Shown piece by piece: positions 1 to 439 of a DNA stretch of 457 nucleotides. The notes under the pieces are model-generated. The model was not told where the DNA came from. It saw only the letters and a list, made by a program, of their open reading frames with translations, and searched no databases. The stretch lies in the sequence record AH001322.2; one strand, written 5' to 3'. A program made the translations under genes and the position numbers. This DNA is from a phage. Position 1 is the stretch's first letter, and the number at the start of each line of letters is the position of its first letter.

Positions 1-117
1 GGCCGAAGCAGTGTATTGATTCACTTGAAGTACGAAAAAAACCGGGAGGACATTGGATTATTCGGGATCTGATGGGATTAGATTTGGTGGGGCTTGCAAC
101 CTGTAGTGCAATTTTAG

Positions 118-316: not shown

Positions 317-320
317 CTAA
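317..320. repeat. Candidate target-site tetramer CTAA at the IS5 junction (possible 4-bp target-site duplication copy)
   Basis: CTAA lies immediately outside the IR. IS5 is known to insert at YTAR (CTAG/CTAA-type) sites and make 4-bp duplications. The other junction is not in the sequenced part of the window, so the duplication itself cannot be confirmed. Confidence 0.45.
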
Positions 321-370
321 GTGATCCCCATGTAATGAATAAAAAGCAGTAATTAATACATCTGTTTCAT

Positions 371-439
371 TTGAAGCGCGAAAGCTAAAGTTTTCGCATT
401 TATCGTGAACGCTTTCGCGTTTTTCGTGCGCCGCTTCAA
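371..439. repeat. Interrupted inverted repeat (dyad symmetry) in the flanking DNA, function unknown
   Basis: Seen directly: cgcgaaagc (377-385) is perfectly complementary to gctttcgcg (411-419), a 9-bp stem with a 25-nt spacer. ttgaagcg (371-378) is perfectly complementary to cgcttcaa (432-439). Together the left arm ttgaagcgcgaaagc (371-385) pairs with a right arm split by a 14-nt insert (420-433). TTTCG/CGAAA motifs recur (379-384, 392-396, 413-417, 422-426). Confidence 0.7.

Follow-up and report, generated by a model that had tools for sequence, protein, structure and literature searches.

The compound dyad-symmetry element at positions 371-439 of the phage sequence record AH001322.2, the whole 457-nucleotide stretch of which is hereinafter called the window, is the right end (attR) of phage Mu itself, a known element and not a new regulatory one. 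Judging from the sequence, we put the probability that positions 363-438 represent the attR of the transposable bacteriophage Mu, with three sites of ~22 bp for its transposase MuA, at about 97%. The original prediction had taken the region for an operator of a dimeric regulator or a structured RNA leader. This reading stands in so far as the DNA is non-coding and its symmetry and CGAAA repeats reflect sequence-specific protein binding, but the operator and the RNA leader give way to the MuA site array of the Mu right end. As a whole, the window is a remnant made up of the Mu ends plus IS5 sequence in lacZ, typical of a laboratory or historical construct. The site array of the Mu attR was described in the 1980s and is used in commercial MuA transposon kits; recognizing it turns an "operator" that matched nothing into a textbook array and spares a fruitless hunt for a transcription factor. 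More generally, multi-site transposon ends with mixed orientation can mimic compound operators.

Correspondence with the ends of phage Mu and insertion in lacZ

Megablast and pairwise alignment assign positions 317-438 (+ strand) to the last 123 bp of phage Mu (NC_000929 / AF083977, nt 36595-36717), with 99.2% identity over 122-123 bp and one 1-nt deletion. This alignment reaches the last base of the 36,717-bp Mu genome, which corresponds to position 438 of the window, and megablast searches with 317-457 recover matches at the far right end of Mu prophages, beside mom. Likewise, positions 12-117 (+ strand) align with nt 1-108 of NC_000929, with two 1-nt deletions, and recover the left ends of the same Mu prophages by megablast. 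The segment opens with TG, so that the termini of the element are TG at 12-13 and CA at 437-438. The latter closes the terminal CTTCA of Mu (434-438, + strand), which marks the end of the Mu alignment, is invariant in 8/8 right ends compared, and had formed the outer part of the right arm in the original prediction. Two further candidates, namely tandem GlpR operators at glpFK and the upstream region of flhDC (both known IS5 targets), were excluded by BLAST, the sequence being that of Mu.

The Mu sequences are flanked on both sides by lacZ coding sequence in sense orientation on the + strand, comprising positions 1-11 (lacZ nt 2454-2464) on the left and 439-457 on the right. Joining 1-11 to 444-457, with one copy of AGCAG dropped, yields a 25-mer with an exact lacZ match in ~2,500 complete E. 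coli genomes, corresponding to nt 2454-2478 of the sense strand of MG1655 lacZ. AGCAG is present once in intact lacZ (nt 2460-2464) and twice in the window, where the left copy at 7-11 is identical to the right copy at 439-443. The arrangement thus marks a Mu-type insertion into lacZ, the 5-bp target duplication at nt 2460-2464 being the canonical one. A search of genome contigs with the exact lacZ-Mu junction returned 0 matches. The gene that the original prediction expected to be regulated to the right of position 457 does not exist, as 439-457 belong to the interior of lacZ near codon 820.

The MuA sites and the origin of the dyad

We scored the window with a 22-bp MuA site consensus, which we take to be TGNTTCAYTNNAARYRCGAAAR as given by Craigie et al. 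1984, and obtained matches at offsets identical to those in the Mu reference. L1 (17-38) and R3 (363-384), both on the + strand, match it with 0 mismatches. On the - strand, R2 (391-411) departs from it at 3 positions in the window and at 2 in the Mu reference, and R1 (412-433) at 4. Four copies of the core AARYRCGAAAR are present in the window, where 0.01 would be expected: at 28-38 and 374-384 on the + strand and at 391-401 and 412-422 on the - strand. These are the core matches of L1 (to the 11/12-mer core) and R3 and the cores of R2 (AAATGCGAAAA) and R1 (AAACGCGAAAG), respectively. They also account for the repeated TTTCG/CGAAA motifs noticed earlier, which are indeed present and constitute the CGAAA cores of the MuA sites. 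The GenBank record of phage D108 annotates its right-end sites as transposase-binding by homology to a Mu consensus of 17 nt, YMyNwRAARYRCGAAAR, and the D108 homologues of both R1 and R2 carry this annotation.

R2 extends over 21 nt in the window and 22 nt in the Mu reference, the R2/R1 junction reading GTGAACGC in the former and GTGAAACGC, with one base more, in the latter. The D108 record has the same shorter junction as the window. The missing base, which reduces R2 to 21 nt, could alter the spacing. R1 and R2 are contiguous and point in the same direction, with R3 inverted relative to both, and the right end as a whole pairs with the Mu left end in inverted orientation, with L1 in + and R1 in - orientation.

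The dyad itself has exactly the geometry that had been claimed for it, as confirmed by reverse-complement check and by shuffling: the 15-nt left arm at 371-385 (TTGAAGCGCGAAAGC) is the reverse complement of 411-419 (GCTTTCGCG) joined to 434-439 (CTTCAA), the right arm being split by a 14-nt insert at 420-433 (TTTTTCGTGCGCCG). The spacing of ~55 bp between position 371 and the end of IS5 is likewise correct, the latter being at 316. In a search dedicated to compound dyads, with dinucleotide-preserving shuffles as the null, dyads of at least 15 nt appeared in 0/500 shuffles of 228-457 and in 1/1000 shuffles of 361-445. The dyad is a real, non-random feature. A general repeat search resolved the same region into the inverted repeats I2 (374-385 / 411-422, 92%), I4 (371-378 / 432-439, 100%) and I7 (378-386 / 389-397), and a direct repeat of 21 nt (387-407 / 408-428).

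Given that R3 is inverted and that all three right-end sites contain the core AARYRCGAAAR, R3 and R1 together make up a dyad, as do R3 and R2 to a weaker degree. The left arm of the dyad corresponds to R3's inner half and the inner right arm (411-419) to the core of R1, whose inner half comprises 412-419; the outer half of R1 (420-433) makes up the 14-nt insert. The outer right arm consists of the Mu terminal TGAAG (434-438) and one lacZ base (439); this terminal TGAAG happens to repeat the TTGAAG within R3, which would add the outer arm to the dyad. Its outermost pair, 371:439, depends on a host base that varies among insertions. As Mu stops at 438, the symmetry intrinsic to the element is thus 14 bp.

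Conservation of the right end in Mu-like phages

We aligned eight right ends, namely those of the window, Mu, SfMu, two E. coli prophages, D108, the Yersinia phage vB_YpM_3 and Mu_3F6. R3 is kept in all eight, and the cores, together with the whole of R1, are essentially invariant among them. Members of the D108 group depart from the other right ends in the outer halves of R2 and R3, and upstream of R3 their sequence shows no relation at all. Over the eight right ends, 13 of the dyad's 15 pairs never vary and the other two vary on one side only, with 0 compensatory changes. Such variation is that of a conserved protein-binding sequence and not of a selected RNA helix. The arms of the dyad, which the original prediction had proposed to examine in orthologous loci for conservation and covariation, are thus strongly conserved across these eight right ends and show no covariation at all.

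Alternative explanations of the dyad

The dyad is real and non-random, with repeated motifs resembling half-sites, and the Mu repressor reportedly touches sites in the Mu ends, with an affinity below that of MuA (PMC3820752), all of which might recommend an operator for a dimeric transcription factor that regulates a gene lying rightward of the window. However, on that side lies DNA from within lacZ, near codon 820, and neither a promoter nor a gene start; a 14-nt gap interrupts the dyad, which needs host DNA for its outer pair; and the sequence is that of the terminal 123 bp of a transposable phage. A search for sigma-70-like promoters in 228-457 found none. We consider an operator of this kind extremely improbable. 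That the symmetry arose by chance in AT-rich intergenic DNA and has no function is a practically negligible prospect: it can appeal only to the fortuitous outermost base pair 371:439, and is set against a dyad that 0/500 and 1/1000 shuffles reach and against arms that are invariant among divergent Mu-like phages.

Highly improbable, too, in our view is a structured RNA, be it a leader, a riboswitch or an intrinsic terminator of the rightward mom transcript. In its favour, the minimum-free-energy fold pairs 373-385 with 411-423, and the + strand, which is that of mom, shows two terminator-like matches downstream of the mom stop codon, each with a stem and then a T-run (378-397 and 404-419; shuffles would lead one to expect 0.2). 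Such stems and T-runs probably arise of themselves from adjacent MuA sites in opposite orientation. Moreover, folding of 365-445 is unremarkable on both strands (z = -1.65 on + and -1.22 on -, with 13/200 and 25/200 shuffles equally stable), which speaks against the structured RNA leader of the original prediction, and there are 0 compensatory changes over the eight right ends. A scan of Rfam gave no match at E-values up to 1. A second role of the dyad on top of MuA binding is improbable but may be considered, in that R3 is reportedly dispensable for transposition and yet the inverted R3/R1 arrangement is strictly conserved: it might be a weak terminator pair that halts mom read-out into host genes, to which the two terminator-like matches are the sole pointer, or a hairpin formed by the single-stranded end of Mu in the course of replicative transposition. 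The MuA site array of the Mu right end is the reading that we retain.

The interior of the element

Between the Mu left and right ends, the window holds a run of 110 masked N (118-227), followed on the - strand by an 89-bp terminal piece of IS5, including its terminal inverted repeat (228-316). This IS5 segment is 98.9% identical to the IS5 end in phage P1 (AF234173) and encodes the first transposase codons, MSHQLTFADS. The annotated IS5 of P1 mod::IS5 (AF234173) measures 1195 bp, and the match extends right to the boundary of the element. The 110 N are too short for the missing 1106 bp of IS5; one must suppose a longer sequence behind the N-run or a truncated IS5. The MuA sites L2 and L3 of Mu (about nt 110-172) would also fall in 118-227. 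Were this stretch to open with GGAAGGTGCGAATAAGCGG, the other end of IS5, it would mean that IS5 abuts Mu nt 108 and that L2 and L3 are deleted. An opening with TCGTTAATCAATGAAACGCG would point to a truncated IS5 with L2 and L3 still in place.

On its right side IS5 abuts CTAA (317-320, + strand), an IS5 target tetranucleotide that is native to Mu (36599-36602) and contains the mom stop codon TAA; the sequence of the Mu reference here is ...CATACCCTAAGTGATCC, with 36602 as the last base of the mom CDS. In the P1 IS5 record, the 4 bp beside the same IS5 end are annotated as target duplication. In the window, the tetranucleotides beside the IS5-containing interior are TTAG (114-117) and CTAA (317-320), both of which fit the IS5 target preference, which we take to be YTAR. 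As they do not form a direct repeat, the structure probably did not result from a simple IS5 insertion. Most likely, the Mu interior (~36.5 kb) was lost via an IS5-associated deletion or by recombination between two IS5 copies. The window contains a non-autonomous mini-Mu, in which the interior, including A, B and mom, is replaced by IS5 sequence. The suggestion that a nearby IS5 copy could change the regulation of the element is not borne out: the end of IS5 lies 46 bp outside R3 and disrupts 0/3 MuA sites, and it is the Mu interior that has been replaced instead.

The exact IS5-Mu junction was found 0 times in genome, viral and metagenome contigs, and megablast searches with 228-457 and with the whole window recovered no record spanning this junction in complete E. 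coli genomes, phages and plasmids. A literature search for an IS5-bearing mini-Mu in lacZ yielded nothing beyond a citation of Chow and Broker 1978, which, as far as the citation goes, reportedly deals with IS2 and IS5 in Mu mutants. The best match to the whole window, NZ_CP026085.1, from an assembly labelled E. coli DH5alpha, was rejected as an unrelated, engineered attL-FRT scar-attR unit. Positions 3778628-3778852 of this sequence comprise a Mu left end of ~70 bp, a pKD3/pKD4-type FRT scar (GTGTAGGCTGGAGCTGCTTC ... CATATG) and a Mu right end from R3 to the terminus. This mini-Mu has a glycosyltransferase gene on one side and a Flag-2-type fliJ/fliI/fliH cluster on the other, which is unexpected under the DH5alpha label.

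Relative to Mu, the window has three 1-nt deletions, at 99-100 (CAA-CCTG), 110-111 (GC-AATTTT) and 407-409 (GTG-AACGC), the last of which is shared with D108. Within the IS5 segment there is presumably one substitution, at 292, with CTCACATC in the window and CTCATATC in the IS5 reference. The three deletions in short runs and the single IS5 substitution could be errors of early gel reading or minor polymorphisms.

A separate feature of the left end is an imperfect 18-nt direct repeat (43-60 / 63-80; CGGGAGGACATTGGATTA / CGGGATCTGATGGGATTA, 72%) in the spacer that separates L1 from L2. This spacer corresponds to the reported HU-binding region (PMC3145075).

Proposed action of MuA on the window copy

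Previous studies have established that the Mu ends carry three MuA sites apiece, that single MuA monomers occupy the individual sites and impose a bend of 80-90 degrees on the DNA, and that R3 is dispensable, with L1, R1 and R2 being enough for a stable synaptic complex (PMC3145075). In vitro, a 50-bp R-end with R1 and R2 is sufficient, and strand transfer takes place with a 5-bp stagger (PMC3362531). The Mu repressor is also reported to bind the Mu ends, less tightly than MuA (PMC3820752). On the basis of this literature, MuA monomers would bind and bend each of the sites in the window. MuA on the right-end and left-end sites would then assemble into a transpososome with nicking activity at the terminal CA (437-438), and the joining of the Mu ends to the target with a 5-bp stagger would have generated the AGCAG duplication in lacZ. 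Both binding and cleavage by MuA are predicted for the window copy by analogy with the Mu reference sequence, on which they are known to occur (PMC3145075). As the window lacks the A and B genes as well as the enhancer, the element would be mobile only with MuA supplied in trans.

A further R1R2 end was seen in the genome of the Proteus phage vB_PmiA_PM1 of the Autographiviridae (PQ065999.1), in which ~42011-42060 is an exact 50-bp copy (GTTTTCGCATTTATCGTGAAACGCTTTCGCGTTTTTCGTGCGCCGCTTCA) within the CDS of a hypothetical protein. It looks like the adaptor of a MuA-transposon library that was left in the assembly.

Comparison with known systems

The closest known counterpart of the region is the attR of Mu itself (NC_000929 / AF083977), with which the window has in common the three sites, their orientation, the terminal CA and the 5-bp target duplication. 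In both the Mu reference and the window the array directly follows the mom stop codon; the window differs in lacking one base at the R2/R1 junction and the body of the mom gene. D108, SfMu and the Mu-like prophages of E. coli and Yersinia have R3, R2 and R1 in the same order and orientation as the window, with a nearly identical R1; set against the D108-type ends, the window falls in the Mu type proper. The ends of Tn7 and other multi-site transposons also bear several transposase sites of mixed spacing and orientation, which give rise to local repeats and dyads, but their transposases are of other families and their site sequences differ, such that the likeness is one of analogy only. Mini-Mu units and in-vitro MuA transposons with 50-bp R1R2 ends resemble the window in being non-autonomous, bounded by Mu ends and dependent on MuA in trans (PMC3145075, PMC3362531). 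The window is set apart from them by an interior of IS5 sequence in place of a marker or scar, and by a left end of which only L1 and the spacer are visible.
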